A stretch of 64,000 nucleotides of DNA. It comes from a virus (taxonomy: Duplodnaviria > Caudoviricetes). Positions 6,701 through 62,078 of the stretch are shown here, piece by piece (the stretch's first letter is position 1; each line of letters starts with the position of its first letter). The position numbers and the translations under genes are program-made. Under the pieces are notes generated by a model. It searched no databases, was not told the DNA's origin, and saw only the letters and a program-made list of their open reading frames with translations. The DNA is taken from positions 918 through 64,917 of the IMG/VR virus record IMGVR_UViG_3300042549_000858. One strand, written 5' to 3'.

Positions 6701-6995
6701 TCTGCTGTAGAAGTTGGCGGCTTGCTTCCGCTTCCTTCATTTGACGTTCAGCGTATTCTTTGTCCCCACCCACAAAAGAACTAACCATAGCAGGGATGGT
6801 GTCGCCAAGAGCAATACCCGTTTCTCCCAAACCACGCATGACACCGCGCTTGGCAATCTCACCCAAACCAACATCCGGTTTAGGAAGACTGAAGTCGTAT
6901 TTTTCTGCCAGTCTGCCGACTAAATTATCGAACTGCTCTGGACTTAGGTTGTCTGGAAATTCAACATTCCCTACTTTGGGCAGTGTGACAATCAT
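735..6995 (-). CDS. Large internal virion (ejection) protein, polyvalent type with zincin HExxH metallopeptidase domain, 2086 aa
   Basis: Last and largest gene of the late operon; Gly/Ala-rich hydrophobic N-terminal helices; YDPKTNTIYL...ILHEAAHAAL...LQEFAAE zincin motif; helical C-terminal region like large polyvalent-protein domains. Confidence 0.8.
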   Translation of the reverse strand: MIVTLPKVGNVEFPDNLSPEQFDNLVGRLAEKYDFSLPKPDVGLGEIAKRGVMRGLGETGIALGDTIPAMVSSFVGGDKEYAERQMKEAEASRQLLQQKYPTRFKSYKDINSPFEALEYGVETLGELTPTIATSIVPGVGGSMLGGRLAGNAAFKAATAAGVPTRAGLAGVETAAKAGAQKGMYGGVFMGSFAQNAPEVFEGIYRETGKFEPGVAALAGGFSAILDSVLPAGVLNSLGSYGKLKVIEQLAKESGAAPKVWKYLGKEVAKSAATEGLTESAQEAIGAYATQVAGSTKGLLDPENVQKYKEAFVKGAVGGAGFGVPGGIAAGRTAKKDYANTQEAKEALNQLAAQEEAARLQPTGLQNQIEGQFPTAGNTQADMEAALAENDARKAREIEINALQARMDEQRPGSRAYADLEDAIKKAKAKDADENAAKASKSAFATAKPTPGTGGMFMPGVEKQRVENKISQEQGMRGFAFGDMGAQNAPKDPVTEQVLKALRIPARSNLTTELLGVDMATPEGVRKFIQTMEDPQKTGTININEDNYQKVLDSLYADGRGGEVEAARAELQAEPISEKTQKQQSATRQFAFGDINAGQPNAPTSGAGTSVAPPPDQEGTATGTGAPTGARVVSPKPDAGLPTIREAEQSATVKETKTQHKTTFEGKPATVTIVRDDTGKVVDTKVKVDGEKFAALNLGAQGVVTDEQLLQNLTDTEIIGGENAAPVTVATTDTAPLVVSAKGRKATPIKATEAAPAETVEAQNIAKVNKTIKFGEDLKIAAEKLGRTASLKGMTELAKDAHAYFSKVLPELALKAIANDLVYQPTAYRNSKMKSFKGAPEMTFGTQAEAEFFKGQGGKHAKNAAQWVRQNLSPEAIAFMDKQIALYEKENASSQVHYSRIDKQQGVKKATKKQLADEAKEAAADKKKVSVQKTIDDIYLDDVIETSYDDFINRGRGEGYFASQETAALHGEAHPVVLHMLERGDVAGALQALADSGSSGLVQRIAGALTKYLGDVKLAVGEARYDPKTNTIYLPANASEYEILHEAAHAALSHVLANPSHPITRKLNKLFEQIKGDIEGAYGATDLQEFAAEMWSNEVFRTRLKEMRTESPNLSMWDKIVNVLRKLMGYEPKQTSVVDAVDQMLNAIMGAPPAARYGESMYAQSIHKPNIAQQVMAGMDHIISNQPAMNSERAVKFLAATERMGISFREATQRFLNLSALGEVGEKILGKDSMDFARSVDGMIGYREELRAKLKPIADRLNKYRQNANYDAWSRLVHESSRLDVNPEAPISQYKGAPEREAAHRQFSAEFNKLNDEEKQLYRDTFGAYRGLFKELKGSLYSSLKETFPDEKAALSAYNKIIDQITKMGIDHYVPLYRQGTYWLTYTDKTNDAVSKLYNSQAERDFARRKLEAEGNTNFDEFSRIDQFTVKNVPRGTMAAQIVKIMREGNADDEAVNKFLQLIVAAMPEASLLKSFQTRKGTLGYENDVALAFGNVTQNVTRQLALMRYGDRMRRLVSNMKETAAGLRGQNQNRAVELINEFEARQEYAMNPKVSDWARYASTGAFYFNLAGNASSAVVNTLQTPMIVYPLLSGKYGWANSGRALLAALQLYRTSGAKREVIDINGNKSMQDSWLEVGLSIDNAVSMGKSPQYAALMQRLKDLGFLQTSTAYDALDVNDRPGKELDKTGNLAHKTAVISTYMFHHAERMNREITAVAAYELEMGRLKNNKKLSDAEKQAQAIEEAIKMVTFAHGAGHTESGPSIGQSDIGKVLTVFKRFGFTMYYMLFNTMNRALPVKGATGQQLEEIQAARRQLLGVYGTAALFAGVKGLPMYWIMEAAYNALNDDDEDDFDTVMRKYLGEFAFKGPINYITNLGIADRVGWTDLIYRENKGGKADASALSQITEAIFGAPYAIVNNMFRAAELANDGHMERAIETALPIALRNVLKGVRYATEGVNTLRGDPVMGDVNGYNAAMQVLGFAPADLLAQYEINAIAKKQGDVITKEEQSLLKKYYVAQREGDFERADKLEEKLFELGDKYPELKITGNTLNKSVKARDKISEDMYHGVQLNKKLRPLIEQSIRELEA

Positions 6996-41777: not shown

Positions 41778-41870
41778 AGGAGGAAAGTTGGCACTCCGAA
41801 GTTCAGGAAATGTAACACAAAAAATATATGGGGGTATGGGAACCCAAATAAAAAAAGACCCGGGGGGTCT

Positions 41871-41907
41871 ATTGGATACTTAAAAACTGGGATTGGATAC
41901 TTAAAAA
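41871..41907. repeat. Direct repeat ATTGGATACTTAAAAA x2 (21-bp period)
   Basis: Exact 16-mers at 41871-41886 and 41892-41907, next to hairpin AGACCC-GGG-GGGTCT (41856-41870) and C/G tracts. Confidence 0.85.
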
Positions 41908-42132
41908 AGAACCCCCCTCCCCCCTATAAGATGTTTACGTGTGTCTGATCTATTGTAATTTTTGTGTAGCGACATGTATAGCTGGAGTACCTATTTCTAA
42001 AAATAGGTTATCTAATGAGCGGATTAGAGTAGTAGTAGCGCGTATGGTACCTAATCCTAAATCTGGGGGGTGGGGTCGGATATACCGCTCAAACTTTCGT
42101 ACTGTACGAAAGTGTAAATTTGTATCTATCCC

Positions 42133-42161
42133 GTGCAAGTTGTTGTTAGGTGTGATACAGT
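42133..42161 (+). promoter_or_regulatory. Possible sigma70 promoter of the first early gene
   Basis: GTGCAA-17 bp-TACAGT with extended TGn. Confidence 0.45.
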
Positions 42162-42220
42162 TCAACCATCGACTCAGGGATTGGCTCTGATTAGATACAG
42201 TCATACGAAAGGAATTCACC

Positions 42221-42748
42221 ATGACTAAATCCTCTACTCTCTCTAATGTTCAACTCGCTACAGACTGTGGCAACGCGGTAGCAGAAATGGCGGACGCGTT
42301 ACAAACGGCCGAGCAGAAGCGCGAACTGGCGAACACTAACATTCTCGCGCTACATAAGGCGAAGGTTGTTGTTGGCACTTATAAGAAGGACGGCACTGGT
42401 TGCGCCATTGCTACCGCGTTTGTTGACGGTGGCGTAGCGAAAGGTAAAACGCAAAGCACTATGCAAAAAACCTACCTACCTACATTCAAAGCGCATGTGG
42501 CAAGTGGCAAGCCCGTGACAGACTGGAATAGTCAACGCGCCAAGCAAAAGGCAAACGGTGCAAAGAAGGACGCAAAGACAACCAAGGAATTCTCTGCAAA
42601 ATTGGCAACATGCTTCCGTGACGCTGAATTTGAAGGGTTTATAAATGACCTTCAGGCGTCATTCCACAATGACGAAATTAAAACGCTACTGGAAGGCGTG
42701 AAGTCTTACCTCGAATCTGAAGGCGTAGACTTGAAGGCGAAAGCGTAA
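42221..42748 (+). CDS. Orphan early protein, 175 aa, monocistronic, bracketed by palindromes
   Basis: RBS AAAGGA, own terminator, Lys/Ala-rich; no family recognised. Confidence 0.8.
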   Translation: MTKSSTLSNVQLATDCGNAVAEMADALQTAEQKRELANTNILALHKAKVVVGTYKKDGTGCAIATAFVDGGVAKGKTQSTMQKTYLPTFKAHVASGKPVTDWNSQRAKQKANGAKKDAKTTKEFSAKLATCFRDAEFEGFINDLQASFHNDEIKTLLEGVKSYLESEGVDLKAKA

Positions 42749-42765
42749 GGTTTCGTACAGTACGA

Positions 42766-42791
42766 AAGCCCCCGAAAGGGGGCTTTTTTTT
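42766..42791 (+). terminator. Intrinsic terminator
   Basis: AAGCCCCC-GAAA-GGGGGCTT followed by a T run; abuts palindrome copy 2. Confidence 0.92.
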
Positions 42792-42815
42792 CGCCCAAAT
42801 TTATTTGGGTGTGAT

Positions 42816-43040
42816 ACCTGTATCCCCGAGGTTCCACTATGAACATGCTACAACACATTGACGCGTGCCGAAGCGACCCGTTCTGGCAGGCTCACTATTT
42901 GAGCCTGTTACTACTTACCCCTTTGAAACCTGTATCCTCGAAGTTGGCCGTACAACAACCTATGGCAAACACTCTGCAAACTTTCGTACCGTACGAAACC
43001 CTTACTCTTCCGAAACCTGTATCCTCGAAGTTGGCCGTAC
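42816..43040. repeat. Direct repeats with core ACCTGTATCCYCGARGTT x3 (29-bp exact pair)
   Basis: GAAACCTGTATCCTCGAAGTTGGCCGTAC at 42925-42953 and 43012-43040; degenerate core at 42816-42833. Confidence 0.9.
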
Positions 43041-43079
43041 GCGTTTAGTGTCAACATGGTTTAAGTTGTTGCAAGTCGT

Positions 43080-43416
43080 TATATCCTCTATTTAGTTCTG
43101 CAATATTCTGCATACGAGAATAAAACAAAAGCCTTTTAAATCAACAACTTAGCATAGCAAAATTCCCTATTATTCTATTATTCTATAAAATAAATATATA
43201 TGAAGTCTAAAAAAATAATCACACACAAGCCCTAACTTTCGTACCGTACGAATGTGTTTTCTCATGTTTTTGTGTTCCTTTGTTTTGTCTCGCTCAAATT
43301 CCCAAAATCACGGAATATTAGAATAATACACACAAAACACCTAAAAAAGCCTTACCAATCAACAACTTAACTTTATTCCACCCCCAAGAACATTGCAGAA
43401 CTATTAAGAGGATATA
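43080..43416. other. Mirror-symmetric AT-rich element with two IHF-consensus sites; candidate replication origin
   Basis: 30-bp inverted repeat 43080-43109/43387-43416 and further IR pairs share axis 43248; AATCAACAACTTA (matches WATCAANNNNTTR) at 43139 and 43357. Confidence 0.6.
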
Positions 43417-43441
43417 CCCCCCTATCCCACCTAGTAACAAC

Positions 43442-43470
43442 TTGACAAGCCCATGTAAATCCCTTATAAT
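43442..43470 (+). promoter_or_regulatory. Consensus sigma70 early promoter
   Basis: TTGACA-17 bp-TATAAT, perfect consensus. Confidence 0.93.
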
Positions 43471-43564
43471 TAAGGCTCATTCGGAATAAAAGCGTTTCGA
43501 GTGACTCGGCAACTTTCGTACGGTACGAAAGCCCGATGTGTAAGGGTCAACAGAAAGGGAAACC

Positions 43565-43903
43565 ATGCGACTCAATTTAGAACTGGTGCATACAGTCACC
43601 AACCAAGTGCTTAAACGCACGACCATCAAACTGCCCGACCGCTCATCACGCATGAGCATGGTCATACTGGCTAAGAAGTGGGCGCATCTATCAGGTGTGC
43701 CGAGTACCACGCATGTGCGTGGCGTCAACGAGTTCAAGGTAAACATACCGCAAGCAGAGCAAGCGATATACATAGAGAAAGATAGTCTTGATGAGGTATA
43801 CGCAGACAAGATGTTGCAACAAGAGAATAGGTTGTATGTTTGGTATGTGCCCGAGTATTCGTACGGTACGAAAGTAGACAGCATGAAGGGAGTATGGAAA
43901 TGA
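43565..43903 (+). CDS. Early hypothetical protein, 112 aa
   Basis: RBS AAAGGGA; first gene after the consensus promoter; contains palindrome copy 6. Confidence 0.7.
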   Translation: MRLNLELVHTVTNQVLKRTTIKLPDRSSRMSMVILAKKWAHLSGVPSTTHVRGVNEFKVNIPQAEQAIYIEKDSLDEVYADKMLQQENRLYVWYVPEYSYGTKVDSMKGVWK

Positions 43904-44142
43904 AATTAGAAATAGACATGGACGAGTTGGTGGGCTTGATGCTCGACAACAAGTTGTTCGAAGAAGTAATGTGTGAATTGCACCCTGAGTTCATGGGCAC
44001 ACTTGAAAAGAAATTGCAGTTCTTGAAGGACATTGTGAAAGCGGGACGTATGCACCCCGATGCACGGAATTACTTTAGAGATGACGAGTTAGATGCTGTA
44101 ACTTATTCCGCTATGCGCGGTATGAAAGGAGAAACGAAATGA
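43900..44142 (+). CDS. Early hypothetical protein, about 80 aa
   Basis: ATGA-coupled to both neighbours (MKLEIDMDEL...). Confidence 0.65.
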   Translation: MKLEIDMDELVGLMLDNKLFEEVMCELHPEFMGTLEKKLQFLKDIVKAGRMHPDARNYFRDDELDAVTYSAMRGMKGETK

Positions 44143-44546
44143 ATTACGACACACTGATGGAAGCGCAAATGGGTGAATGGCCTGACAGCGTAGTGCTAAC
44201 TGATATACATGTGTATGAGTTGGTGCGTAATGGAATACCTGATTGGCTAGTCGGGCACAAGTTCGAGGACTGGAGACACTATGACGCACGACACGAGATG
44301 GGTTGGTACGCCAGTATTGGTTACGAAAATTGGAAACAGTTGGAGATAGAAATGACCCGTGCAAGGTGGGCGCGTAGTGCCTTCAAGTATCGAGGAGATA
44401 CCCCACAAGGTTTCTTCTACGCATGTGGCAAGCGTGACGATGGGACATACCAACATGTTGGGTTTAGATACGGGACGCGGGACAGCGAGTACGCGTCGGG
44501 GTTCGATGGATTGCAATACACACCACAAGGAGAATCAAATGAGTAA
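44139..44546 (+). CDS. Early hypothetical protein, 135 aa
   Basis: RBS AAAGGAG; aromatic-rich; RYG...SEY.SG motif. Confidence 0.7.
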   Translation: MNYDTLMEAQMGEWPDSVVLTDIHVYELVRNGIPDWLVGHKFEDWRHYDARHEMGWYASIGYENWKQLEIEMTRARWARSAFKYRGDTPQGFFYACGKRDDGTYQHVGFRYGTRDSEYASGFDGLQYTPQGESNE

Positions 44547-44709
44547 AGTTGAAATGATTGCGCACTTAATCATGGCGTTTGTTATGTTGGTGTTATGCCA
44601 CGACAAAGATGGTTGGTTGTTTGAAGCGGGCTTGGTGTTCGCGGGTGCACTCATCGGTGCAGTTGCTTGGGTTGCCCTTAACGAAGTAGGAGTTGATGAT
44701 GCAGAATAA
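44539..44709 (+). CDS. Small two-TM membrane protein, 56 aa
   Basis: RBS AAGGAG before MSKVEM; two hydrophobic helices. Confidence 0.65.
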   Translation: MSKVEMIAHLIMAFVMLVLCHDKDGWLFEAGLVFAGALIGAVAWVALNEVGVDDAE

Positions 44710-44863
44710 ATTGGAACGCAAAGAATCTAATCGTAAGCATACACAGCACAAGATGTTGTGGGTTGGCATGTTCGTGGATAAGAAAGTACCACGGGAACAT
44801 TCGTACCGTACGAAAGCAGAAGAGCGTGACCGCTTGAAACTTGAAAGACAAGAGTGGAAGTAA
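44699..44863 (+). CDS. Small basic protein, 54 aa (not in ORF track)
   Basis: RBS AGGAG; MQNKLERKESNRKHTQHKMLWVGMFVDKKVPREHSYRTKAEERDRLKLERQEWK; contains palindrome copy 7. Confidence 0.55.
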   Translation: MQNKLERKESNRKHTQHKMLWVGMFVDKKVPREHSYRTKAEERDRLKLERQEWK

Positions 44864-44880
44864 CTAAACAGGGGAACTAT

Positions 44881-45228
44881 ATGAGTATCAAAATGATTGC
44901 AAACGGCAAGGCTAGGGAGAGGGTGGAGAACCGCCAAGCGTTCAGAGGTAGCAATGTGTGGGGTGAGTGGGGCGTGAACTCGTACGACAACAAGTTGTAT
45001 GGCGTTTATTCCTACCGATACACATGGCCTCTATTTGTGTACGACCACGCGGCAGATGTTTGGTACGAGAACGACAGCCAGTTCAGTCAGACCACAAGCC
45101 GACACCGAACCCAATGCAGACCGACAGGTGTGCCGACCGTGAAGTGTAGTGTGGACGATATGCGAGTTGTTGCCGTGACTGGTGGCATAGGTTTAATTGA
45201 AAGAGCAAACAAAGGAGAAGAAGCATGA
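44881..45228 (+). CDS. Early hypothetical protein, 115 aa
   Basis: F.GSN.WGE...YGVYSY..WPLFVYD..WYEN...S.TTSRH motif seen in phage early genes. Confidence 0.7.
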   Translation: MSIKMIANGKARERVENRQAFRGSNVWGEWGVNSYDNKLYGVYSYRYTWPLFVYDHAADVWYENDSQFSQTTSRHRTQCRPTGVPTVKCSVDDMRVVAVTGGIGLIERANKGEEA

Positions 45229-45413
45229 AGAAAAGAGATTGGATTATTTTGCGGGTGATACGGGTTGCGGTTAGGGACAACTTGTATGAATCAAGTAGGA
45301 ACGCTGATGTTGCAAGGTCAATCATGTACCTGATACGCAAGTACGGGAGTGCGCATGTGATGGATTGTCTTGGTCAACTACGAGATGAAGGGGGAAGTTA
45401 TGAGTTTCGATAA
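45225..45413 (+). CDS. Early hypothetical protein, 62 aa
   Basis: RBS AAAGGAG; ATGA coupling. Confidence 0.6.
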   Translation: MKKRDWIILRVIRVAVRDNLYESSRNADVARSIMYLIRKYGSAHVMDCLGQLRDEGGSYEFR

Positions 45414-45630
45414 CTACAGAGAGTGCACCATATGTGGTGATGAGTTCCCGACTGAGCGTTGGGCATTGGGATACCGCATGTGTTTGTTTTGCGGAGAAGA
45501 TTTTGCACGGGCAGAGCGCAAGTCGTGGACTGTGGTGCAAGAGTACGGCAAGGGTGGGTACATGTTCGTCACACAGGACTCGGCGAAACGTACCTTAAAA
45601 CAAACAAACCAAAAGATGTTGAGGGATTAA
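45400..45630 (+). CDS. Zinc-finger protein (DksA/TraR-like C4 pattern), 76 aa
   Basis: C..CG....ERW.LGY..CL.CGE. Confidence 0.65.
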   Translation: MSFDNYRECTICGDEFPTERWALGYRMCLFCGEDFARAERKSWTVVQEYGKGGYMFVTQDSAKRTLKQTNQKMLRD

Positions 45631-45632
45631 AT

Positions 45633-45827
45633 ATGAATGATACTTTTAATGGATTCGTGGGCAAGACTGTGGCACGTGTTGAGTATGTAACTACACGTAA
45701 AGATGGGTGCGACTACAAAGATGAATTGACATTGCACTTTACCGATGGGTCAACGCTTACTGTATGTGAAAGCGACCCCGACATCTATTTGAATGGGCTT
45801 GATGTATGTGCATCTATAAATGAGTAG
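45633..45827 (+). CDS. Early hypothetical protein, 64 aa
   Basis: RBS GAGGGA; VGKTV..VEY...L.FTDGS motif. Confidence 0.6.
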   Translation: MNDTFNGFVGKTVARVEYVTTRKDGCDYKDELTLHFTDGSTLTVCESDPDIYLNGLDVCASINE

Positions 45828-45834
45828 GTAGGAC

Positions 45835-45863
45835 TTGACAAGCCTATGTAAAGTTGTTATACT
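45835..45863 (+). promoter_or_regulatory. Strong sigma70 promoter
   Basis: TTGACA-17 bp-TATACT with extended TGn. Confidence 0.9.
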
Positions 45864-45933
45864 ATAGGCTTGTTAGTTAGTATTGTGTGTAAGTTAATCA
45901 AACGCGGTTTCGTACCGTACGAAAGGGAATCAA

Positions 45934-46803
45934 ATGGAAGAAGTTGTTGTATCTAAATTGTCGGGCTCTGCCCTCATCGTTAACTTGTCGTTGTCTGTAT
46001 GGACGGGTAGGAAACTAGATAAAAGAGTTTCCGAAGCGGTTGACCAACAGAACTCTACCCGTACCCGTGCGGGTAACTATCACAAGAACTTGTTGGCGGG
46101 TTCGGGCAAGTTGGAGGAGATAACCAAGGTGGCAAACGCTGTGCGTACATGGCACTACACGGTGACGCAACCTTGGGGTGACAACGGTGACAGGGTATTG
46201 AACATGGCAACATTCATTGACTACAAGTCACGACTGACTGAGTACGAGCAACAGTTCACGACATGTGTCAACGCGTTCTTGAATGAGTACGACACGCTTG
46301 TATCGTCCGCCGCTTTTCAGTTGGGTGACTTGTTCAATCGTGAGGACTATCCCTTGCGTGAGCAAGTTGTTAGTAAGTTTGGGTTTCGCTATGCGTTTAC
46401 CCCACTACCTACTGCGGGTGACTTTCGTGTAGACATTGGTGAGGAGGGACTACGCGAGATGAAACAGCACTACGAAGATGTGTTGAGTACCCGTGTGACT
46501 GACGCCATGCAAGATGCTTGGGATAGATTGCACGATGTGTTGACTCGCATGAGTGAGCGACTGTCTGATACAGAAGATGGCAAGCGCAAGATATTCAGGG
46601 ACTCGTTAGTTGAGAACGCTATAGAAGTTTGTGGGTTGTTGCGCCACTTCAATATCACTGGTGATGTACGCATGGAAGCAATGCGTATGGAGTTGGAGGA
46701 AACCATGCGTGGCATTGACGCATCGGTATTGCGTGAGAGTGACTTAACACGAGAGCAAACCAAGCAGAAGGTTGACGCCATGCTTGACAAGTTTTCGATG
46801 TGA
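45934..46803 (+). CDS. DUF3150-like protein, 289 aa
   Basis: L..S.WTGRKLDK...K.LL...T.PW.D.G.R.L...LGDLFN.EDYP...KF.F...P.P..GDFR; upstream of the AAA+/vWA pair. Confidence 0.7.
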   Translation: MEEVVVSKLSGSALIVNLSLSVWTGRKLDKRVSEAVDQQNSTRTRAGNYHKNLLAGSGKLEEITKVANAVRTWHYTVTQPWGDNGDRVLNMATFIDYKSRLTEYEQQFTTCVNAFLNEYDTLVSSAAFQLGDLFNREDYPLREQVVSKFGFRYAFTPLPTAGDFRVDIGEEGLREMKQHYEDVLSTRVTDAMQDAWDRLHDVLTRMSERLSDTEDGKRKIFRDSLVENAIEVCGLLRHFNITGDVRMEAMRMELEETMRGIDASVLRESDLTREQTKQKVDAMLDKFSM

Positions 46804-46865
46804 GTTTCATCGTACGGTTTCGTACCGTACGAAAGTTGTTTTGTTTTTTATCAAAGGAGAAAATC

Positions 46866-47090
46866 ATGGACGATAACTTAGACATGTTTACTGAGGAGGT
46901 AATCAAGAACATAAGTTTGGAGATAACCGAACTATGTATGAGTAAGGGTATGCCACCCGCACTAGCGTCGGGCGTGCTTGCATCAACACTTGCTATCTAT
47001 TGCAAAACTCAGGGGCTGACTCAGCACCAAGCAATCAGCAGATTCACAAATACCGTTCGCGGTATCTACAACCAAACCAACACACATTAA
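46866..47090 (+). CDS. Hypothetical protein, 74 aa
   Basis: RBS AAAGGAG before MDDNL. Confidence 0.65.
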   Translation: MDDNLDMFTEEVIKNISLEITELCMSKGMPPALASGVLASTLAIYCKTQGLTQHQAISRFTNTVRGIYNQTNTH

Positions 47091-47106
47091 CTTAAAGGGG
47101 AATCAC

Positions 47107-48186
47107 ATGTCTTTATATAAATCTTTATCTCTGCAACAAACGGCTGACCTAATCTTGGCGGTCGGTCACAAGCGGACTGTCTTAGCGCAAGGTGAAATGG
47201 GTATTGGTAAGTCATCAATCCTCAAGATGTTGCGTAACAAACCTGAGTTGAAGGACTACTTCTTTTGCTATGTTGACATCACGACGAAAGATGTTGGCGA
47301 CTTCATGGTGCCGAAGATTAAGGACATCGACGGCAACGAGGTGTGTCGCTTTGTACCTAACGAGGAGTTCGGCTTGCACTTCAAGGGCAAGAAGATTGTG
47401 ATGATGCTCGACGAGTTGGGCAAGGCTAAGGGTGGCGTGATGAACGCATGTCTACGACTTATGCAAGAGCGTTCGCTTGGTGTGTATGACTTGGACGGTA
47501 TTGTGTTCGCCACTACTAACCTGAGTGTCGAGGGTATTGGTGACAATGTACCGCCACATGCACGCAACCGTGTGATTCAGACACGAGTGGGTAAGCCCAA
47601 CGCAGAGGAGTTGATTACCTATGCAATCAACAACAACTGGAATCCGATTGTCATTGCCACTATCCAAGAGTTCCCTGAGATGTTGGCATCGTTCGAGGAC
47701 TACGAGAAGCCTGAGCAGAACATGTATATCAATGACCCACGAGATGTTCGTATGGCGGTGGTTACTCCGCGTTCATTGGAAGCGTCATCAGATGTTATCA
47801 ACGACACAATGATTCTCGGCAACGACATCATGTGCCATGCGTTGAAGGGTACGGTCGGTGAGAAGGCTATGCACAACATGTTGACGATGGTGACATTGGA
47901 TACACAACTTACATCATGGGACGACCTAATCAAAGCACCAACAACTGCCGTTGTGCCAACGAGTGCGGCGGCGGCGTGTATGTTGATTGCCAAAGCGGTA
48001 CAGCGTATTGAGAAGGCAACGATGAACGCATGGATGGAGTTCTTACCACGCATGAGCAAGGAGTCGCAAGGTTTGTTTGCACGAAGCGTGATGAGTGACA
48101 TGTGCCCCAAGCGTACGGTCGCGGCAACTAACCCCATGTTCGCTAAGTGGGCGGCAGATAACAACTATCTGTTTGCTCGTAAGTAA
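47107..48186 (+). CDS. AAA+ ATPase (MoxR/dynein-related AAA_5 type), 359 aa
   Basis: Walker A GEMGIGKS, Walker B MMLDE, sensor ATTN, arginine finger NR, VTPRS. Confidence 0.88.
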   Translation: MSLYKSLSLQQTADLILAVGHKRTVLAQGEMGIGKSSILKMLRNKPELKDYFFCYVDITTKDVGDFMVPKIKDIDGNEVCRFVPNEEFGLHFKGKKIVMMLDELGKAKGGVMNACLRLMQERSLGVYDLDGIVFATTNLSVEGIGDNVPPHARNRVIQTRVGKPNAEELITYAINNNWNPIVIATIQEFPEMLASFEDYEKPEQNMYINDPRDVRMAVVTPRSLEASSDVINDTMILGNDIMCHALKGTVGEKAMHNMLTMVTLDTQLTSWDDLIKAPTTAVVPTSAAAACMLIAKAVQRIEKATMNAWMEFLPRMSKESQGLFARSVMSDMCPKRTVAATNPMFAKWAADNNYLFARK

Positions 48187-48195
48187 GGGGGTTAT

Positions 48196-48330
48196 ATGAA
48201 AACACCAACAGAACTGTATGACTTGCTTGACAAGGCAGATATTGAATATGAAATCGTGGAGATATTTGAGGGTGTTCGTATCCTCAGTATCGAGGTCAAT
48301 GATGAACCAACCGAAGAAGGAGAGAACTAA
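48196..48330 (+). CDS. Small acidic protein, 44 aa (not in ORF track)
   Basis: RBS AAGGGGG; MKTPTELYDLLDKADIEYEIVEIFEGVRILSIEVNDEPTEEGEN; fills the gap exactly. Confidence 0.6.
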   Translation: MKTPTELYDLLDKADIEYEIVEIFEGVRILSIEVNDEPTEEGEN

Positions 48331-49503
48331 ATGTTTGTAACAGCAACCCAAGCACTACCCGCAATCAAGCGGATTGAGCGAGCCCATGTTGAACTCATGG
48401 CACACAAAGATACTATGGAGTATGCAAGCATCATCATGGTCGGGAAGTACAAGGTGTCGGACGATGTACCCACTGCTTGTACCAACGGCATCGACTGTAT
48501 GTATGGCAGTAAGTTCATAGGTGACTTATCGGACAGCGACTTGCGTGGACTCATCATGCACGAGAATCTTCACAAGACATTCCAACATACATTCTTGTGG
48601 CATCACTTGTATGAGGAGAACGCACGGTGCGCAAACATGGCGTGCGACTATGTGATTAACCTCATCATTCACGACATCTCTCAAGCATCGCGTGGGTTCG
48701 TGACATTGCCCAAGGTCGGACTACTTGATGAGCGTTTCCGTGACATGAACTCACAGGAAGTGTTTGACATACTAAGAGAAGAGGGGCATGGCGAGGGTGG
48801 TGACGGTGACGGCGCGGGCTTAGATGACCACGACTGGACTCCATCGGGTATGACTCAGAAAGAAATTGAAGAGCACATCAAGGAAGTCAATCAGGCTATC
48901 CGTCAGGGTCAACTCATGGCGGGCAAGATGGGTGGCAATCAGTCTCGTGCATTGGGTGAGTTAGTCGAGCCCAAGGTTGATTGGCGTGAACAGTTACGCG
49001 ACTACATCAATTCACTAGCCGATGGTAAAGATGTATCCACATGGCAGAAGGTCAATCGTCGTTGGTTGCAACACGATATGTATATGCCAAGCACGCTATC
49101 AGAATCTATGGGGCGCATCGTCATCGCTATCGACACATCGGGTTCTATTGGTGGTGAAGCACTCAACGAGTTCTTGTCAGAGGTGCAAGCCATCTGTATC
49201 AATGTTCAGCCTGAGTTAGTTGACTTGTTGTATTGGGATACCGAGGTGGCATCGCATGAGATATATGGACGCGACAAGTTGGGTGACTTGGTTAAGTCTA
49301 CGAAGCCCGAAGGTGGTGGGGGTACTGACCCATCATGTATTCCCGCATACATCAAAGACAAGGGCTTGAAGCCTGAGTGTGTCGTGGTGCTCACCGATGG
49401 ATATGTTGGTGGGTGGGGTACATGGGAACACCCAGTTCTTTGGGCTATCACAGGTGGGTACAAGCCTACGCCGTCCGTCGGCAAAGCAATCTATGTTAGT
49501 TAA
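48331..49503 (+). CDS. Metallopeptidase-vWA protein (DUF2201-like), 390 aa
   Basis: PTACTNG, HENLH (HExxH), N.ACDYVIN, MIDAS DTSGS, GGGGTD, LTDG. Confidence 0.88.
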   Translation: MFVTATQALPAIKRIERAHVELMAHKDTMEYASIIMVGKYKVSDDVPTACTNGIDCMYGSKFIGDLSDSDLRGLIMHENLHKTFQHTFLWHHLYEENARCANMACDYVINLIIHDISQASRGFVTLPKVGLLDERFRDMNSQEVFDILREEGHGEGGDGDGAGLDDHDWTPSGMTQKEIEEHIKEVNQAIRQGQLMAGKMGGNQSRALGELVEPKVDWREQLRDYINSLADGKDVSTWQKVNRRWLQHDMYMPSTLSESMGRIVIAIDTSGSIGGEALNEFLSEVQAICINVQPELVDLLYWDTEVASHEIYGRDKLGDLVKSTKPEGGGGTDPSCIPAYIKDKGLKPECVVVLTDGYVGGWGTWEHPVLWAITGGYKPTPSVGKAIYVS

Positions 49504-49530
49504 TACAGGTATCAAGAAAGCGAGGACTTT

Positions 49531-50499
49531 ATGGCAAACGAATACAACGCACAACATTTTTACGGGTACAACATTCGCATGGTTGACTATGCGACTACCA
49601 AAAAGTTTTACGACACAACCAAACCAATACAGGGGAGTAAAAAGAAGGGGGGCGTTGACTGCCGACCATTGACTGTACGCAGACGCACATTCGAGACTTG
49701 GTACGAGAAAGATGGTTGGGTGGGTATGGCGTTTCGTTCTATCTATCGTAAGGGTGAGCAAAACCCAATCACTAAAGAGTATGAGTTTAAAGAGTACGAA
49801 GATACGGCACGCCCTCTGCTTATGATGAACGAGCATGGTGCGTTACGGTTCACGCCGACCTACATGTATAGTTTCTCCACATACCAAGTTATTTCAGCGT
49901 TGTTGCCCGAGAGTATTAAGTTTGTAAAGTACGGGGCTAAGGTGTATTTCAAGTGCACACGACCCGATGGGCAAGAGCCTATGTATTACTTCAACAACGG
50001 GTTGGATATGACTTTCGTACCGTACGAAAGAGATGGTGTTAGGTACTATGAGCCAACACACGGCACGGTGCAAGAGTCAAAGGTAATGCTAGACCGCGAC
50101 AAGGCTAAGGTAGTACGAGAAGATTTCAAAGCGTTTTTAGATTACTTTCAACCAATGGCTGACTTGCTTGGCTTTGACCCGACGACTGAGGGTGCTACGT
50201 CATGGCAAAAGAAAGAGAAAGCCACAGAGTATTTAACAGAAACAAATTGGCTTGCACGCAAAGATGGTGAGCCATACGGTGAGCGTTGGGTTGATGGGGT
50301 TGAAGCGATGTTGGTCAAGCATACGAGTTACCAAAGTTCTTGGGAAGCAGGCAAGTGGACTTACCAATACTATGTGGCTAACGCAGAGTCATTGCGTACG
50401 ACATACAAACGCAACGAGAAGGTGTATCGACTAGCGCGTCCATTCAGGCGAGAGGGTGTGCCAATAGGTACGCCGTTCTACAACAACTACAGGGAGTAA
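49531..50499 (+). CDS. Hypothetical protein, 322 aa
   Basis: RBS GAGGA; long ORF; contains palindrome copy 10 (TFVPYER). Confidence 0.8.
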   Translation: MANEYNAQHFYGYNIRMVDYATTKKFYDTTKPIQGSKKKGGVDCRPLTVRRRTFETWYEKDGWVGMAFRSIYRKGEQNPITKEYEFKEYEDTARPLLMMNEHGALRFTPTYMYSFSTYQVISALLPESIKFVKYGAKVYFKCTRPDGQEPMYYFNNGLDMTFVPYERDGVRYYEPTHGTVQESKVMLDRDKAKVVREDFKAFLDYFQPMADLLGFDPTTEGATSWQKKEKATEYLTETNWLARKDGEPYGERWVDGVEAMLVKHTSYQSSWEAGKWTYQYYVANAESLRTTYKRNEKVYRLARPFRREGVPIGTPFYNNYRE

Positions 50500-54811: not shown

Positions 54812-54960
54812 TTGGAGAAGACGATGATGACATCCAAGAGTACAAGAAGCCTTGGGTTGGGTTGACGGATAGAGAAATGATGGACGTCATACACCTAGAT
54901 GACACGCCAATGGAAATGGGGCGAAAAATAGAAGCCAAACTGAAAGAAAAAAATGGCTAG
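54808..54960 (+). CDS. Small protein with PWVGLTD..E/IEAKLKEKN motif, 50 aa (not in ORF track)
   Basis: RBS GGAGGAG; MIGEDDDDIQEYKKPWVGLTDREMM...IEAKLKEKNG. Confidence 0.7.
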   Translation: MIGEDDDDIQEYKKPWVGLTDREMMDVIHLDDTPMEMGRKIEAKLKEKNG

Positions 54961-55423
54961 ACCCTACGGCAAAATAAACAAGGGGCACACCATACCCTAC
55001 GGCACGATGGTAAATGCTGGTTATGAATTGCGCCAAGCCTACTACGGCGGGTATAAAAATGACAATGAGTTTCCTGAGTTGCCATGCCCGCCACAGCCCA
55101 CAGAATATGTATGCCCCGAAGAAGAGTTGTACAGGAAAGAAGTCTCAGCGTTTGTACAAGAACTGCTAGATGTGCTGACACCTAGAGAATCCAAAGTGTT
55201 GCGCTTTAGATTTGGTATTGAACTTGAATGTGACCATACGCTTGATGAAATTGCGGGGATGTATGACCTAACAAGGGAGCGTATTCGACAGATTGAGATG
55301 AAAGCAATACGCAAACTGAAGCACCCCGAACTTAAACTTGCAGAAGTCTTTGCACCCGAAGATTGCTACGAACCAACTAATAGAAAGAAAAGAACACATG
55401 AACGTATTGACAGTAGATTTTGA
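54953..55423 (+). CDS. Stand-alone sigma70 region 4 protein, 156 aa
   Basis: LTPRESKVLRFRFGI....HTLDEIA....LTRERIRQIEMKAIRKLKHP, closely matching RpoD region 4; no regions 2 or 3. Confidence 0.88.
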   Translation: MARPYGKINKGHTIPYGTMVNAGYELRQAYYGGYKNDNEFPELPCPPQPTEYVCPEEELYRKEVSAFVQELLDVLTPRESKVLRFRFGIELECDHTLDEIAGMYDLTRERIRQIEMKAIRKLKHPELKLAEVFAPEDCYEPTNRKKRTHERIDSRF

Positions 55424-60095: not shown

Positions 60096-60123
60096 TTGAC
60101 AATGTTAAATTTAGCGGTATGAT
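60096..60123 (+). promoter_or_regulatory. Sigma70 promoter
   Basis: TTGACA-16 bp-TATGAT, with a second TTGACA 10 bp upstream at 60086. Confidence 0.7.
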
Positions 60124-60152: not shown

Positions 60153-60560
60153 ATGACTGAAGACATTTCAGCCGACAAACTCGTCGCCGTCTACATCAAG
60201 ATGCGCGACAAGAGAGCCGAACTTCTACGTGGTTACGAAGAAGAAGACGGTGCGGTGAAAGCACAGATGGAAATGGTGGAGGGCAAGTTACTTGACCTCT
60301 GCAAGACTGTCGGTGCCGATAGCCTAAAGACCAAGCACGGTACTGTTATGCGTGGTGTAAAAACTCGCTACTGGACAAGTGATTGGGCATCCATGCACAA
60401 ATTCATTTTGGAACACCAAATGCCTGACCTTTTGGAAAAGCGCATTAGTCAAGCCACACTGAAACAACTTTTGGATGAGAACCCTGACCTGATGCCCCCG
60501 GGCGTCAATGTAGATAGCAAATACTCAGTTACTGTAAGGAGAAGCACAAGTGGAAGCTGA
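60153..60560 (+). CDS. Conserved replication-module coiled-coil protein, 135 aa
   Basis: L...YIK.RD, S.KT.HGT, DW.....FI, LLEKRI.Q, PPG motifs. Confidence 0.8.
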   Translation: MTEDISADKLVAVYIKMRDKRAELLRGYEEEDGAVKAQMEMVEGKLLDLCKTVGADSLKTKHGTVMRGVKTRYWTSDWASMHKFILEHQMPDLLEKRISQATLKQLLDENPDLMPPGVNVDSKYSVTVRRSTSGS

Positions 60561-60744
60561 AACAACCCTGACTGTTTTGGAGGTCGCAAAATACTTGCGG
60601 GTTTCCCGACAAACAGTCTACACCCTGATACGTGAGGGAAAAATCCCGCACTTCAAAGTAGGCACAAAGGTACGCATTAAACGTGCAGACCTCGACGCCA
60701 TGACAAATACCCAAACCAAATCAACCACAGGAGAAACTATATGA
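60550..60744 (+). CDS. Excisionase-like HTH DNA-binding protein
   Basis: LTV.EVAKYLRVSRQTVY.LIREGKIP..KVG...RI...DL. Confidence 0.88.
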   Translation: MEAETTLTVLEVAKYLRVSRQTVYTLIREGKIPHFKVGTKVRIKRADLDAMTNTQTKSTTGETI

Positions 60745-61652: not shown

Positions 61653-62078
61653 ATGGCGAAAATTTGTGAGTGCTGTGGGCAAAAGATTCGGAAACTAAAC
61701 CCACACCGAATGTGCAAACACAAAGTTACTGTGCTTGAAATTATGGCTAAGGCTGATGACTGGGTAGTTGCCCAACATGGACATGGCGTCATTGTTAATG
61801 GCGTTTCTGTTCGCGCCCCTTATAGGGCAGAGGCACATGCAAGTCGTTTAGTTTGGTTTGGTTTAGCAGAACATGGAGCAACGCGCTCAGGGATGTACCG
61901 CATCACACAGGCGGGTAGGGACTTCCTTGCGGGAACACATGCTGTACCAAAAATCATATGGTGTAAAGACGGCATAGTAGTTGAAACAGATTCCATACAA
62001 GTAACGATAGGCAGTGTGAAAGATGTAGTCCTTGATAAAGAATATTGGGACAACTATGGAGCAATGCAGAGACCATGA
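61653..62078 (+). CDS. Hypothetical protein with CxxC and wHTH-like segment, 141 aa
   Basis: CECCGQ; L.WFGL.E....G.Y.IT..G..FL.G; RBS AAAGGAGG. Confidence 0.7.
   Translation: MAKICECCGQKIRKLNPHRMCKHKVTVLEIMAKADDWVVAQHGHGVIVNGVSVRAPYRAEAHASRLVWFGLAEHGATRSGMYRITQAGRDFLAGTHAVPKIIWCKDGIVVETDSIQVTIGSVKDVVLDKEYWDNYGAMQRP

Follow-up and report, generated by a model that had tools for sequence, protein, structure and literature searches.

The window analysed here is the whole 64,000-nt stretch, which corresponds to bases 918-64917 of the 64,917-bp record of an uncultured freshwater phage. Its plus-strand early arm carries ten copies of a 17-base palindrome, TTTCGTACNGTACGAAA, all within 42095-50029, together with the gene of the first early protein (175 aa), two promoters, a terminator and a stretch of about 800 bp of non-coding DNA. 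The features are as follows, the palindromic sites having no strand.

42095..42111: site 1, exact, centre T; about 118 nt 5' of the start codon of the 175-aa gene
42221..42748, plus strand: candidate reader gene, encoding the 175-aa first early protein; all-helical, predicted homodimer, co-varying with palindrome type
42751..42767: site 2, exact, centre A; 2 bp past the TAA of the candidate reader gene
42768..42791, plus strand: intrinsic terminator, GCCCCC-GAAA-GGGGGC then T8, abutting site 2; RNA fold -21.5 kcal/mol
42914-42953 and 43001-43040: D3 direct repeats of 40 nt, flanking site 3
42982..42998: site 3, exact, centre C; in the non-coding stretch, between the D3 repeats
43237..43253: site 4, one mismatch (last base), centre C; AT-rich part of the non-coding stretch
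43442..43470, plus strand: promoter P1, consensus sigma-70, TTGACA-17-TATAAT (12/12); drives nine small orphan early genes
43514..43530: site 5, exact, centre G; in the 5' leader, centre 52 nt past the P1 -10
43857..43873: site 6, one mismatch (first base), centre G; 3' end of ORF 43565-43903, next start codon 27 nt on
44799..44815: site 7, one mismatch (first base), centre C; within the 56-aa ORF 44693-44863
45835..45863, plus strand: promoter P2, near-consensus sigma-70, TTGACA-17-TATACT (11/12), TG upstream; drives the DUF3150, AAA ATPase and VWA genes
45908..45924: site 8, exact, centre C; centre 53 nt past the P2 -10, 9 bp 5' of the DUF3150 ATG at 45934
46818..46834: site 9, exact, centre C; 14 bp past the DUF3150 stop codon, with a T-rich run after it
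50013..50029: site 10, exact, centre C; within the 322-aa ORF 49531-50499, coding F-V-P-Y-E

A scan of the window with up to two mismatches returned exactly these ten matches, seven of them exact and three with a single mismatch, in each case in the first or last base. In most copies the symmetry continues to 19 bp, CTTTCGTAC-N-GTACGAAAG, and the spacings from site to site are 656, 231, 255, 277, 343, 942, 1109, 910 and 3195 bp. Shuffled sequence gave a mean of 0.01 matches and none of 100 shuffles held ten, while the full 64,917-bp record, searched with at most one mismatch, contained the same ten copies and no further one; the reversed pattern, used as a control, had 0 matches over the whole record. 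The original prediction of ten copies with none elsewhere was thus confirmed, and its details also stood: three copies lie in coding sequences (sites 6, 7 and 10), one lies 2 bp past a stop codon (site 2) and the copy at 45908 ends 9 bp before the ATG. The terminator abutting site 2 was not listed by a consensus terminator scan.

Arrays at matching positions are present in related freshwater phages, in different spellings. Five types of TTC-xxxx-N-xxxx-GAA were found, i.e., TTCGTAC-N-GTACGAA (GTAC or CGTAC type), TTCATAC-N-GTATGAA (ATAC or CATAC), TTCATAT-N-ATATGAA (ATAT or CATAT), TTCCCAC-N-GTGGGAA (CCAC or CCCAC) and TTCCTAC-N-GTAGGAA (CTAC). Across 15 full-length related loci, no site occurs in 5 kb of the structural arm, the density peaks just past the candidate reader gene and then declines rightward; each relative has its own clustered palindrome at the terminase end of the early arm, as had been asked about the neighbourhood of terS. 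The DUF3150 start codon is preceded by a site at 18-71 nt in all 15 loci, and a site lies 862-907 nt past this start codon in 14 of them.

The type changes are mirrored in both arms every time, including the innermost pair (C/G to T/A). Because this pair stays complementary though it is unable to pair across a 1-nt loop, the symmetry is that of a dyad in double-stranded DNA and not of a hairpin. Complementarity also reaches the centre in two unrelated 1-nt-spacer palindromes of distant relatives, and the centre base varies freely among orthologous sites. These patterns of sequence change support the earlier proposal that the ten palindromes behave as dsDNA sites for a symmetric dimer, rather than as RNA hairpins. 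A role at the RNA level, with transcribed hairpins as processing sites, terminators, stabilisers or nut-like loading sites for a protein on RNA, appears improbable to us. All copies do lie within the transcribed plus-strand arm, two of them sit in 5' leaders behind strong promoters as nutL sits behind pL in lambda, copies 2 and 9 adjoin the terminator or T-runs, and in three of six contexts the isolated palindrome hairpin has a moderate stability of -7.9 to -12.8 kcal/mol. The 175-aa family also shows echoes of ribosomal protein S7, an RNA binder, which are far from significant (E 0.5-0.7 against PDB chains, E 0.37 against Pfam in 2 of 30 members, and one JGI label). However, the innermost positions, complementary in every 1-nt-spacer type, could not pair in a hairpin, all copies in one genome share one sequence rather than covarying, and the ATAT type would form a very weak A-U stem. 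The flanking bases, often non-complementary (e.g., G...G at copies 2, 8 and 9), do not extend the helix, the palindrome hairpin was not the minimum-energy structure in three of six contexts, and an Rfam search returned no family at threshold.

Inside a gene, the same preference for DNA is visible in codon choice. Site 10 was kept in 13 of 13 orthologues of 31-87% identity, reading TTC GTA CCG TAC GAA in 6/6 CGTAC-type and TTC ATA CCG TAT GAA in 7/7 CATAC-type phages, so that the Val/Ile codons and the synonymous Tyr codons track the palindrome type. The synonymous-site conservation looked for in the original prediction was therefore found at this copy, and judging from these alignments selection is acting on the DNA itself.

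The protein that would read the sites was sought by co-variation with palindrome type. Residues 79, 84, 88, 101, 103 and 106 of the 175-aa protein follow the type in all 49 distinct genes with an assigned type, as listed here in that order of residues.

GTAC type: xTTDNR, 12/12 genes
ATAC type: x(N/V)(T/V)DNR, 18/18 genes
ATAT type: GNTENQ, 6/6 genes
CCAC type: KNLDGK, 11/11 genes
CTAC type: KNTDNR, 2/2 genes, not separated by these six positions from two ATAC-type genes (all KNTDNR)

Gln replaces Arg106 in just the type that has A instead of G at the innermost position. The co-variation places the specificity-carrying segment at residues about 67-112, and the N- and C-terminal parts of the protein are shuffled relative to palindrome type. 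When all ORF families up to 10 kb to the left or right of the DUF3150 gene were compared, only the 175-aa family and the antisense frame over it had neighbouring columns of low diversity in step with the type. The related loci L020 and L021, 83-93% identical in DNA, differ mainly at residues 67-112 of this protein and are switched at 5 of 5 orthologous sites, and the L038/L039 pair (81-97% identical) shows the same pattern. L038 has a CCCAC-type reader yet a CATAT-type site at its P2 promoter, so either this site is dispensable or the recombinant is recent. On the tree of the neighbouring DUF3150 gene the palindrome type changes at least 10 times, but the well-supported branches provide just 2 independent contrasts for each type (for CCCAC, 6 when all branches are counted), and a sign test cannot reach significance; with so few contrasts, the reader segment may formally still be only linked to a true reader next to it.

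A new phage protein or a hijacked host protein had been anticipated as the reader, and from the candidates then listed the 175-aa protein is the one favoured by the co-variation. The 64-aa HTH protein (60550-60741) was rejected as its recognition region is invariant in 6/6 genomes spanning four palindrome types, and a 141-aa candidate (61653-62078) was rejected as it is absent from 4 of 5 complete relatives. That a host transcription factor or nucleoid protein reads the palindromes, the types corresponding to different hosts, is hardly credible. Phages with related arrays come from many freshwater samples, which would suit such a reading, but near-identical phages (81-97% DNA identity) differ in type and the type tracks the phage protein. 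A search of the genomes of 185,579 species found the 19-bp palindrome in only 6 stretches, against a chance level of about 9 by our own estimate, and the one stretch with a cluster (L133, 7 copies) is itself part of a related phage and has the reader gene.

The AF2 model of the 175-aa protein has a pLDDT of 82.6. Searches of Pfam, PDB and named relatives returned no family or fold match, and at least 500 unnamed metagenome homologues were found. The predicted fold matched no known DNA-binding domain, its best structural match (Z 5.2, chorismate-mutase-like helical bundles) being in the noise range for helical proteins, and family searches detected no ParB or CTPase domain and no HTH family, Cro/CI type included. 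The homodimer prediction scored 0.79 against 0.00 for the best control, with runs agreeing in at least 83% of contacts and a partner pLDDT of at least 71; in the calibration of the tool this mark was reached by 20/30 proteins solved as same-chain pairs and 1/23 solved as single chains, counts that hold only roughly for a run with a custom alignment as here. A Lys-rich, low-confidence linker spans residues about 108-122, and a second small helical domain also lies within the predicted interface. Taking the sequences and the model together, the 175-aa family is most likely a previously undescribed helical family with predicted DNA-binding function.

The placement of the sites points to transcription. 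P1 and P2 are the only consensus sigma-70 promoters of the early arm, and each has a copy centred 52-53 nt past its -10. When promoters with at least 11/12 matches to the sigma-70 consensus were collected from 41 typed related loci, a site was centred 38-56 nt past the -10 in 59 of 63 plus-strand promoters and in none of the three minus-strand promoters; conversely, 59/350 sites have such a promoter, as against 0.5% of control positions. The other four of the 63 plus-strand promoters have no site at this distance, and the window's own promoter at 60096-60123 is one of them. The same layout occurs with unrelated palindromes in distant relatives (4/4 promoters in L058, 1/2 in L053, 2/3 in L060 and 1/2 in L046), and in L058 the order is promoter, site, 241-aa gene and a further site right past its stop codon. 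The original view that copies and promoters show no fixed spacing is therefore incorrect. Around the candidate reader gene itself, 48 distinct typed genes had sufficient flanking sequence; 45 of them have a site no more than 330 nt 5' of the ORF, and only 13/48 have one at most 40 nt past the stop codon. Alignment of the upstream regions of relatives placed site 1 at a variable distance 5' of the putative promoter of this gene.

The dense cluster at 42.75-43.55 kb may have an architectural or origin-linked role, and would suit either equally well. If the 175-aa protein were a replication initiator or origin organiser, it would bind this AT-rich cluster as lambda O binds iterons and DnaA its boxes, and the outlying sites would be secondary regulatory copies; we consider this unlikely. 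The density of sites does peak in this stretch, which has no conserved ORFs (its ORFs have relatives in only 2 loci), both in the window and in 15/15 full-length relatives. It is AT-rich (GC 0.442 for 42-44 kb), contains several direct and inverted repeats in addition to D3, and lies at the cumulative GC skew minimum where the two gene arms diverge, while the specificity segment and exchangeable C-terminal domain of the protein resemble the two-domain logic of lambda O. On the other hand, the 231-343 bp spacing is far wider than in iteron arrays, divergent transcription explains the skew minimum equally well, and sites placed at a set distance past strong promoters, or conserved in genes at distances of up to 4 kb, would serve no obvious purpose at an origin. 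The phage also encodes a DUF927-type primase, and such primases can recognise origins themselves.

From the sites, their confinement, their positional rules and their co-variation with the protein, we infer dimer binding and roadblock repression. On balance, with a probability somewhat above even, the palindromes are dsDNA sites to which the phage's own first early protein, of 175 aa, binds as a homodimer; as a roadblock it would probably shut off the early genes. Each monomer would read one half-site, TTC-G-T-A-C, via residues about 67-112. The protein would be made early from its own monocistronic unit and, as it accumulates, would occupy the sites that follow the start points of the two strong sigma-70 early promoters by about 40-50 nt, as well as those between and inside early and middle genes. 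The bound protein would most likely block host RNA polymerase, and the early arm, probably including its own unit, would be shut off once the early functions have been made. The specificity of reader and sites appears to have been re-set repeatedly among related phages, which would fit selection for escape from the repressor of a kin phage during co-infection. The roadblock leaves two points unexplained, i.e., site 1, which lies 5' of the putative reader promoter, and the four sites crowding the 800-bp stretch with only P1 as a consensus promoter.

The original prediction favoured an array for architecture or segregation over an operator set. In such an array the sites would nucleate a structure that bridges, compacts, anchors or protects the early genome end or ratchets its entry, like parS/ParB or KorB/OB with an unrelated protein, and we hold this to be rather doubtful. 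The density gradient over about 8 kb, the sites far from promoters and in genes, kept by synonymous codons, and the Lys-rich linker with the second helical domain in the predicted interface are consistent with it, and for KorB one palindrome-binding protein is described as serving both partition and long-range silencing (PMC11790492). However, no ParB_N, AAA_31-type ParA or tyrosine integrase was found in the phage genome, whereas control genomes scored, in line with the earlier remark that no ParA/ParB was recognisable. Nothing in the genome points to lysogeny or a plasmid lifestyle, so segregation would not be needed; the 175-aa protein has no ParB or CTPase domain detectable by family searches, and the tight placement downstream of promoters points to transcription. 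A dispersed operator or roadblock network thus fits better in a phage showing no partition ATPase and no lysogeny or plasmid signs.

The proposed network may be compared with three known systems. Lambdoid Cro/CI proteins bind as dimers to pseudo-palindromic sites with a free central base pair, and their specificity modules are exchanged between related phages; the early-expressed shut-off of early promoters proposed here would resemble that by Cro. Lambda operators are 17 bp long, six in number and overlap the -35/-10 of pL and pR, whereas the sites here lie 38-56 nt downstream of the -10 and in genes, at 6-16 per genome, and the 175-aa protein matches no Cro/CI-type HTH family. KorB on the IncP plasmid RK2, as presented in PMC11790492, is a dimeric global silencer. 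It is a CTP-dependent sliding clamp of the ParB family, with KorA and a ParA protein as partners. Its OB operator is likewise an odd-length palindrome with one central base, repeated at varying distances from promoters (PMC11790492), so odd length does not single out parS2 as had been suggested; unlike KorB, the candidate reader has no ParB_N domain, none is encoded in the genome, and no co-repressor was identified here. In Cluster A mycobacteriophages, according to the account in PMC6550527, elongation is blocked at 20-30 dispersed sites. The site motif changes together with the repressor, the two defining immunity groups, and the repressor is variable in its DNA-binding as well as its C-terminal part (PMC6550527). 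As for these stoperators (L5 gp71, Bxb1 and Trixie repressors), one phage protein would here use many near-identical sites dispersed in transcribed DNA, mostly outside promoters, with a motif that co-varies with the reader between related phages (PMC6550527). Stoperators are 13-bp, asymmetric and oriented with transcription, while 17-19-bp perfect palindromes and a predicted dimer are found here, and the palindromes follow strong sigma-70 promoters at a set distance. Cluster A phages are temperate and carry integrase or parABS, and their repressors differ from the 175-aa protein, for which no HTH family or Pfam match was detected; here no integrase, ParA or ParB was found and the sites are confined to the early arm. 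The block of elongation by stoperators is experimental (PMC6550527), and the same action is proposed here by analogy. Our best reading is that this network would work like the stoperators of Cluster A mycobacteriophages, yet outside that family.

The best-supported mechanism for the palindromes of this virus is a dispersed operator network that shuts off its early arm. A pattern scan of the window gave ten copies of the 17-bp palindrome TTTCGTACNGTACGAAA, clustered within 8 kb (42095-50029, numbered here as sites 1 to 10), seven of them exact and three with one mismatch, at an outermost base; the chance expectation from shuffles was 0.01, and none of 100 shuffles reached ten. The copies stand exactly at the coordinates of the original prediction, which had also found none elsewhere, and the full record of 64,917 bp, of which the window covers bases 918-64917 and which has terminal repeats, indeed contains those ten alone, with zero hits for the reversed control pattern. 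The majority of copies widen to CTTTCGTAC-N-GTACGAAAG (19 bp). Three of the ten sites lie inside ORFs and none inside a -35/-10 pair. The genome around them is arranged as follows.

735-41777, minus strand: structural arm, with a 2086-aa LPD39/DarB-like virion protein, ejection protein, portal and large terminase
42221-42748, plus strand: gene of the 175-aa first early protein, the proposed binder of the palindromes (the reader)
From 42221, plus strand: plus-strand arm, in the order 175-aa orphan gene, about 800 bp without conserved ORFs, nine small orphan genes
Plus strand, within and after the nine small orphans: one DksA-like orphan; then DUF3150, AAA ATPase and DUF2201/VWA protein
Plus strand, continued: sigma-70 region-4 protein, family-A DNA polymerase, PD-(D/E)XK nuclease, SNF2 helicase and DUF927 primase

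By polymerase identity the closest deposited phages are distant ones, Rhizobium phage RHph_TM3_14A (36.7%) and Pseudomonas phage KPP25 (35.7%). A DNA search of deposited phages with 41800-50200 gave zero matches, and the DUF3150 protein matched three cyanophage records alone among them, at 29% identity. Matching DNA was found in lake and freshwater metagenomes (24 runs, all in contig form), and one metatranscriptome run contained contigs 90-99% alike that cover portions of the early arm, though these may stem from carried-over DNA. A tyrosine integrase was absent from the record by a search in which control genomes scored. The 156-aa protein at 54953-55423 (plus strand), encoded just 5' of the DNA polymerase gene, has a Sigma70_r4 match (E 2.5e-17) but none to region 2; it could act on middle/late genes as a phage sigma-like or -35-binding factor. 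The operon of the early promoter P1 encodes a 76-aa protein (45400-45630, plus strand) with a weak DksA-like zinc-finger match (phrog_54, E 0.0025), which may bind RNA polymerase. A 64-aa helix-turn-helix protein (60550-60741, plus strand) with an invariant LRxSRQTxY helix is present in all five complete relatives.

Scanning IMG/VR with the DUF3150 protein yielded 60 related loci, 61 with the window, and 41 of these 61 (window counted) have a TTC-xxxx-N-xxxx-GAA palindrome of a single type in two or more exact copies. Named by their arms, the types were CGTAC (GTAC for short, the window's own) in 8 loci, CATAC (ATAC) in 16, CATAT (ATAT) in 6 and CCCAC (CCAC) in 11; searching again, this time with the reader profile, turned up 67 loci and added CCTAC (CTAC) as the fifth type. 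Between types, every base change is mirrored in both arms. Relatives further removed have palindromes unrelated to these (GTAGGAC-NNN-GTCCTAC, TACTGTC-N-GACAGTA, TGTGACA-N-TGTCACA and an ATTAAC/GTTAAT type). Each relative has a clustered palindrome of its own beside the terminase end of the early arm, a point on which the original prediction had proposed a check. The number of sites per genome in relatives was 6-16. In the 15 full-length loci the array begins just 5' of the reader gene, peaks 1-3 kb past it and thins rightwards; sites recur just before the DUF3150 start (15/15), just past its stop (14/15), and at about +2.0 kb and about +3.3 to +4.4 kb, and the 5 kb of structural arm examined in these loci held zero sites. 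Among the genomes of 185,579 species the 19-bp palindrome occurred in six stretches, against our own chance estimate of about nine, and the sole clustered stretch (7 copies) was a fragment of a related phage, L133, carrying the reader gene. Binned with an alphaproteobacterial MAG from a pond, this 9,096-bp contig carries 7 CGTAC-type sites and a reader gene (match at E 3.5e-70), and its terminase/portal region is 74% identical to the window. The binning may be an artefact; if not, it hints weakly at the host group.

The evidence favours a two-fold symmetric reader acting on duplex DNA, as judged from the sequences compared. The innermost pair around the single central base is complementary in every type with a 1-nt spacer, whether near (C/G, T/A) or distant (C/G, A/T), which a hairpin leaves unexplained because this pair cannot form across a 1-nt loop; the earlier claim of a dimer site in double-stranded DNA and not a hairpin was upheld on this point. 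The central base varies freely among orthologous sites, the bases flanking the sites are often non-complementary, and the ATAT type would form only a feeble stem in RNA. The palindrome hairpin was not the minimum-energy fold in three of six folded contexts, and an Rfam search gave no family up to threshold. An RNA hairpin element (nut/boxB-like, processing or terminator) is unlikely, since base-pairing in a feasible hairpin does not explain the conservation. Hairpin promoters of the N4 type, read by a virion RNA polymerase, had been weighed for the 2086-aa virion protein and a possible 7-8-bp stem with a 3-nt loop. They were rejected on three grounds: consensus sigma-70 promoters precede the sites, changes at the innermost positions are symmetric, and the virion protein (735-6995) has LPD39 and DarB-like C-terminal matches and no polymerase family.

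The protein that follows the palindrome type was sought by clustering every ORF of 35 aa or more in the 60 loci and the window, and by comparing sub-clusters and alignment columns with palindrome type. Clustering of whole genes over all ORF families returned spurious overlapping frames only, and whole-protein identity of any early gene was uncorrelated with type. The column test picked out the 175-aa family, with the antisense frame over the same DNA, and nothing else. The segment that follows type is central, residues ~67-112 in window numbering of the alignment; outside it, N-terminal helix and C-terminal domain have been shuffled among types, and a search by gene-family presence/absence did not find a partner for the C-terminal variants. 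Pooling both scans gave 54 distinct reader genes, 49 of them with a typed array, and all 49 obey the residue signature of their own type at six positions.

Residues of the reader by palindrome type (positions 79, 84, 88, 101, 103 and 106; genes obeying the signature)
GTAC: xTTDNR; 12/12
ATAC: x(N/V)(T/V)DNR; 18/18
ATAT: GNTENQ; 6/6
CCAC: KNLDGK; 11/11
CTAC: KNTDNR; 2/2

A change from Arg106 to Gln accompanies the innermost G to A, and Thr84 is found solely in the type with G at half-site position 4. Lys79 is present in both types with C at position 4 and also in two ATAC genes, and for this reason the six positions fail to separate CTAC from those two. A simple half-site code might be readable from sequence, in which Arg106 would go with an innermost G and Gln106 with an A there, Thr84 with a G at position 4, and the Leu88/Gly103/Lys106 set with a C at position 5. 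Two pairs of close relatives show the switch at short range. At 83-93% DNA identity, L020 (CCCAC) and L021 (CATAC) have readers whose differences fall mostly within residues 67-112, and each of the five orthologous sites has switched type; L038 and L039 (81-97% identical) show the same pattern save one L038 site. L038 is a natural recombinant (L038:3792 vs L039:4133): its reader is of CCCAC type, as are five sites in its left part, but it keeps a perfect CATAT-type site, non-cognate to its reader, after its P2 promoter. On the DUF3150 tree there were at least 10 type changes, where shuffles averaged 19 and none of 200 was as low; a formal sign test was not significant because well-supported branches supply only two independent contrasts per type. 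Two other candidate readers were rejected: the 64-aa helix-turn-helix protein, whose recognition region is invariant in 6/6 genomes spanning four types, and a 141-aa protein absent from four of the five complete relatives.

The reader belongs to no named family that we could detect. Pfam and PHROG searches gave no family, and 30 family members were likewise without a Pfam match; the best PDB sequence hit had E 0.12 and was no relative, and tblastn at E 1e-3 found no homologue in 50,697 deposited phage records, a collection that presumably includes the Cluster A phages. Metagenomes hold at least 500 homologues, all unnamed. AlphaFold2 with a 30-row alignment gave an all-helical model (pLDDT 82.6) with helices at 9-46, 62-73, 78-95 and 104-112, a Lys-rich low-confidence linker and three short helices, and the predicted pair 62-73 and 78-95 resembles a helix-turn-helix. 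Foldseek against the PDB returned nothing at E <=0.001, and a wide structural search (VIA) peaked at Z 5.2 with chorismate-mutase-like bundles, within the noise range for helical proteins. In the ESM Atlas the nearest named cluster was DUF3102 at 0.82, below the level at which a match counts beyond a lead, and the opening lines of abstracts on DUF3102 dealt with unrelated topics. Homodimer prediction scored 0.79 against 0.00 for the best control; the predicted contacts are symmetric and follow the long N-terminal helix. Agreement between runs was at least 83% of contacts, and partner pLDDT was at least 71. In calibration the mark was reached by 20 of 30 same-chain pairs and 1 of 23 single chains, counts that are rough because our own alignment was used. 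The prediction supports dimerisation of the reader, short of showing it.

The sites are not indifferent to promoters. The early arm has two consensus sigma-70 promoters, P1 (43442-43470, 12/12) and P2 (45835-45863, 11/12), and the centres of sites 5 and 8 lie 52 and 53 nt past their respective -10 elements. Over the 41 typed loci, 59 of 63 plus-strand promoters (at least 11/12 matches) had a site centred 38-56 nt past the -10, as did none of three minus-strand promoters, so the earlier statement that the copies have no fixed position relative to promoters has to be withdrawn for strong promoters. The four promoters that break this pattern are in L026, L035, L038 (where the site is the non-cognate CATAT) and at 60096-60123 of the window. 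Seen from the sites, 59 of 350 have such a promoter, against 0.5% of control positions, and therefore about four fifths of sites are not promoter-proximal. The same layout occurs with unrelated palindromes in L058 (4/4 promoters), L060 (2/3), L053 (1/2) and L046 (1/2), and by eye in L056 and L054. In L058 the order is promoter, site, 241-aa gene, and a site directly 3' of its stop codon; hhalign of the reader-family profile against this 241-aa protein gave probability 0.1, no detectable homology. That the promoter-then-site rule at about +45 survives an unrelated palindrome and reader suggests a design of general use, by which strong early promoters of host type are shut off. The distance from promoter to site varies by up to 18 nt. 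Such leeway speaks for a block that polymerase meets once it has cleared the promoter, and against a phased contact made at the promoter itself. Selection on an in-gene copy is seen at site 10, in a 322-aa ORF whose orthologues are 31-87% identical: the site is kept in 13/13, all with the motif M-x-F-(V/I)-P-Y-E, and the codons are TTC GTA CCG TAC GAA in 6/6 CGTAC-type and TTC ATA CCG TAT GAA in 7/7 CATAC-type genes. The third base of the Tyr codon thus follows palindrome type, and the proposed synonymous-site conservation is confirmed for this site.

Several other elements lie near the reader gene and the promoters. CTATCCCGTGCAA (42126-42138) has a single copy in the window, about 15 nt 5' of the TGTAAT/TGTGAT -10-like element that precedes the reader gene, and is near-invariant in 12/12 relatives of four palindrome types (upstream alignment A2). 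This block may give the reader's promoter a second means of control that does not depend on type. GGTGTGATAC, common to the surroundings of sites 1 and 2, was discarded: its two exact copies are only there, and at one mismatch it is not above chance. Direct repeats of 40 nt, 90% identical and iteron-like, flank site 3 (42914-42953 and 43001-43040), with a shorter third copy of their core, CCTGTATCC-CGA-GTT, at 42812-42833, past the terminator of the reader gene. The exact 16-nt repeat ATTGGATACTTAAAAA (41871-41886 and 41892-41907, 21 nt apart, tandem-like) lies between the small-terminase-side gene and the reader gene and adjoins a minus-strand terminator-like hairpin (41856-41870). At P2 a 7-bp inverted repeat, AGCCTAT...ATAGGCT (45841-45871), brackets the spacer and the -10 and may be a site for another regulator; P1 has a 4-bp version, AGCC...GGCT. 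In sequencing run X5, two freshwater contig records join 43485 (just past P1) to 42094 (site 1) with 16 other letters between, which suggests a relative with a P1-like promoter directly before the site and reader gene.

In the proposed operator network, the first early protein would bind the palindromes as a dimer, occupying sites just past both strong promoters of host type and others spread along the early and middle operons, and the bound dimer would block elongating polymerase and so shut off the early arm. An origin-linked or architectural function of the array stays a live rival, because a roadblock poorly explains three points: that four sites fall in the 800-bp stretch lacking conserved ORFs, that one lies 5' of the reader's own putative promoter at variable distance, and that a mismatch is tolerated at the L038 P2. 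The original prediction had judged the array less like an operator set and more like an architectural one; the operator network is now the better supported, and the architectural role survives as that rival. A further-reaching proposal, an apparently virulent phage with a stoperator-like network, a new dimeric fold, a simple half-site code and a lytic-phage 'heteroimmunity' driving repeated re-targeting between near-identical phages, is possible but, in our estimation, rather unlikely to hold in all its parts. On this proposal, a resident infection would silence the early promoters of co-infecting kin unless the newcomer had another specificity. If the operator reading is correct, elongation-blocking operator networks, in print so far from temperate actinophages, would extend to abundant uncultured freshwater podophage-like viruses without lysogeny genes. 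It would also add an unannotated DNA-binding protein family of at least 500 metagenomic members, and its five matched protein-site specificities would form a natural series on the joint change of a regulator and a dozen dispersed sites. Matched reader-site pairs could serve as orthogonal repressor-operator parts.

As compared to known systems, the array resembles ParB/parS in its clustered palindromic centromere-like sites. It differs from ParB/parS, KorB/OB included, in that the record has no ParB_N protein (PF02195, scoring in 10/14 control genomes) and no ParA of the AAA_31 type (PF13614, the sole ParA-type model used, scoring in 14/14), in agreement with the earlier remark that no ParA/ParB was recognisable; the 359-aa ATPase (47107-48186) matches phrog_1297 'ATPase' and weakly nSTAND3, and is not a ParA. 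KorB/OB (PMC11790492) is a second functional analogue, excluded as a family. Unlike Cro/CI operators, which overlap the -35/-10, the sites here are centred past the -10 at 59/63 promoters. The reader might still carry a Cro/C1-type helix-turn-helix domain: it has no Pfam/PHROG match, and its predicted model contains the helix-turn-helix-like pair. Published accounts, supplementary files apart, gave none of phage early promoters with a downstream inverted-repeat roadblock, and the titles and abstract openings on KPP25 mention nothing on such repeats. In Cluster A mycobacteriophages, 20-30 dispersed sites block elongation, co-vary with the repressor and define immunity groups (PMC6550527). Cluster A stoperators are asymmetric 13-bp sites in one orientation to transcription, whereas here there are perfect 17-19-bp palindromes, a phage without lysogeny genes and a reader unrelated to any named family, and the system is therefore not a member of the Cluster A repressor/stoperator family. 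What it shares with the stoperators is many dispersed near-identical sites in transcribed DNA, mostly outside promoters, and a reader and site motif that co-vary among relatives (49/49, with few phylogenetically independent contrasts); the Cluster A stoperators are the closest described system.
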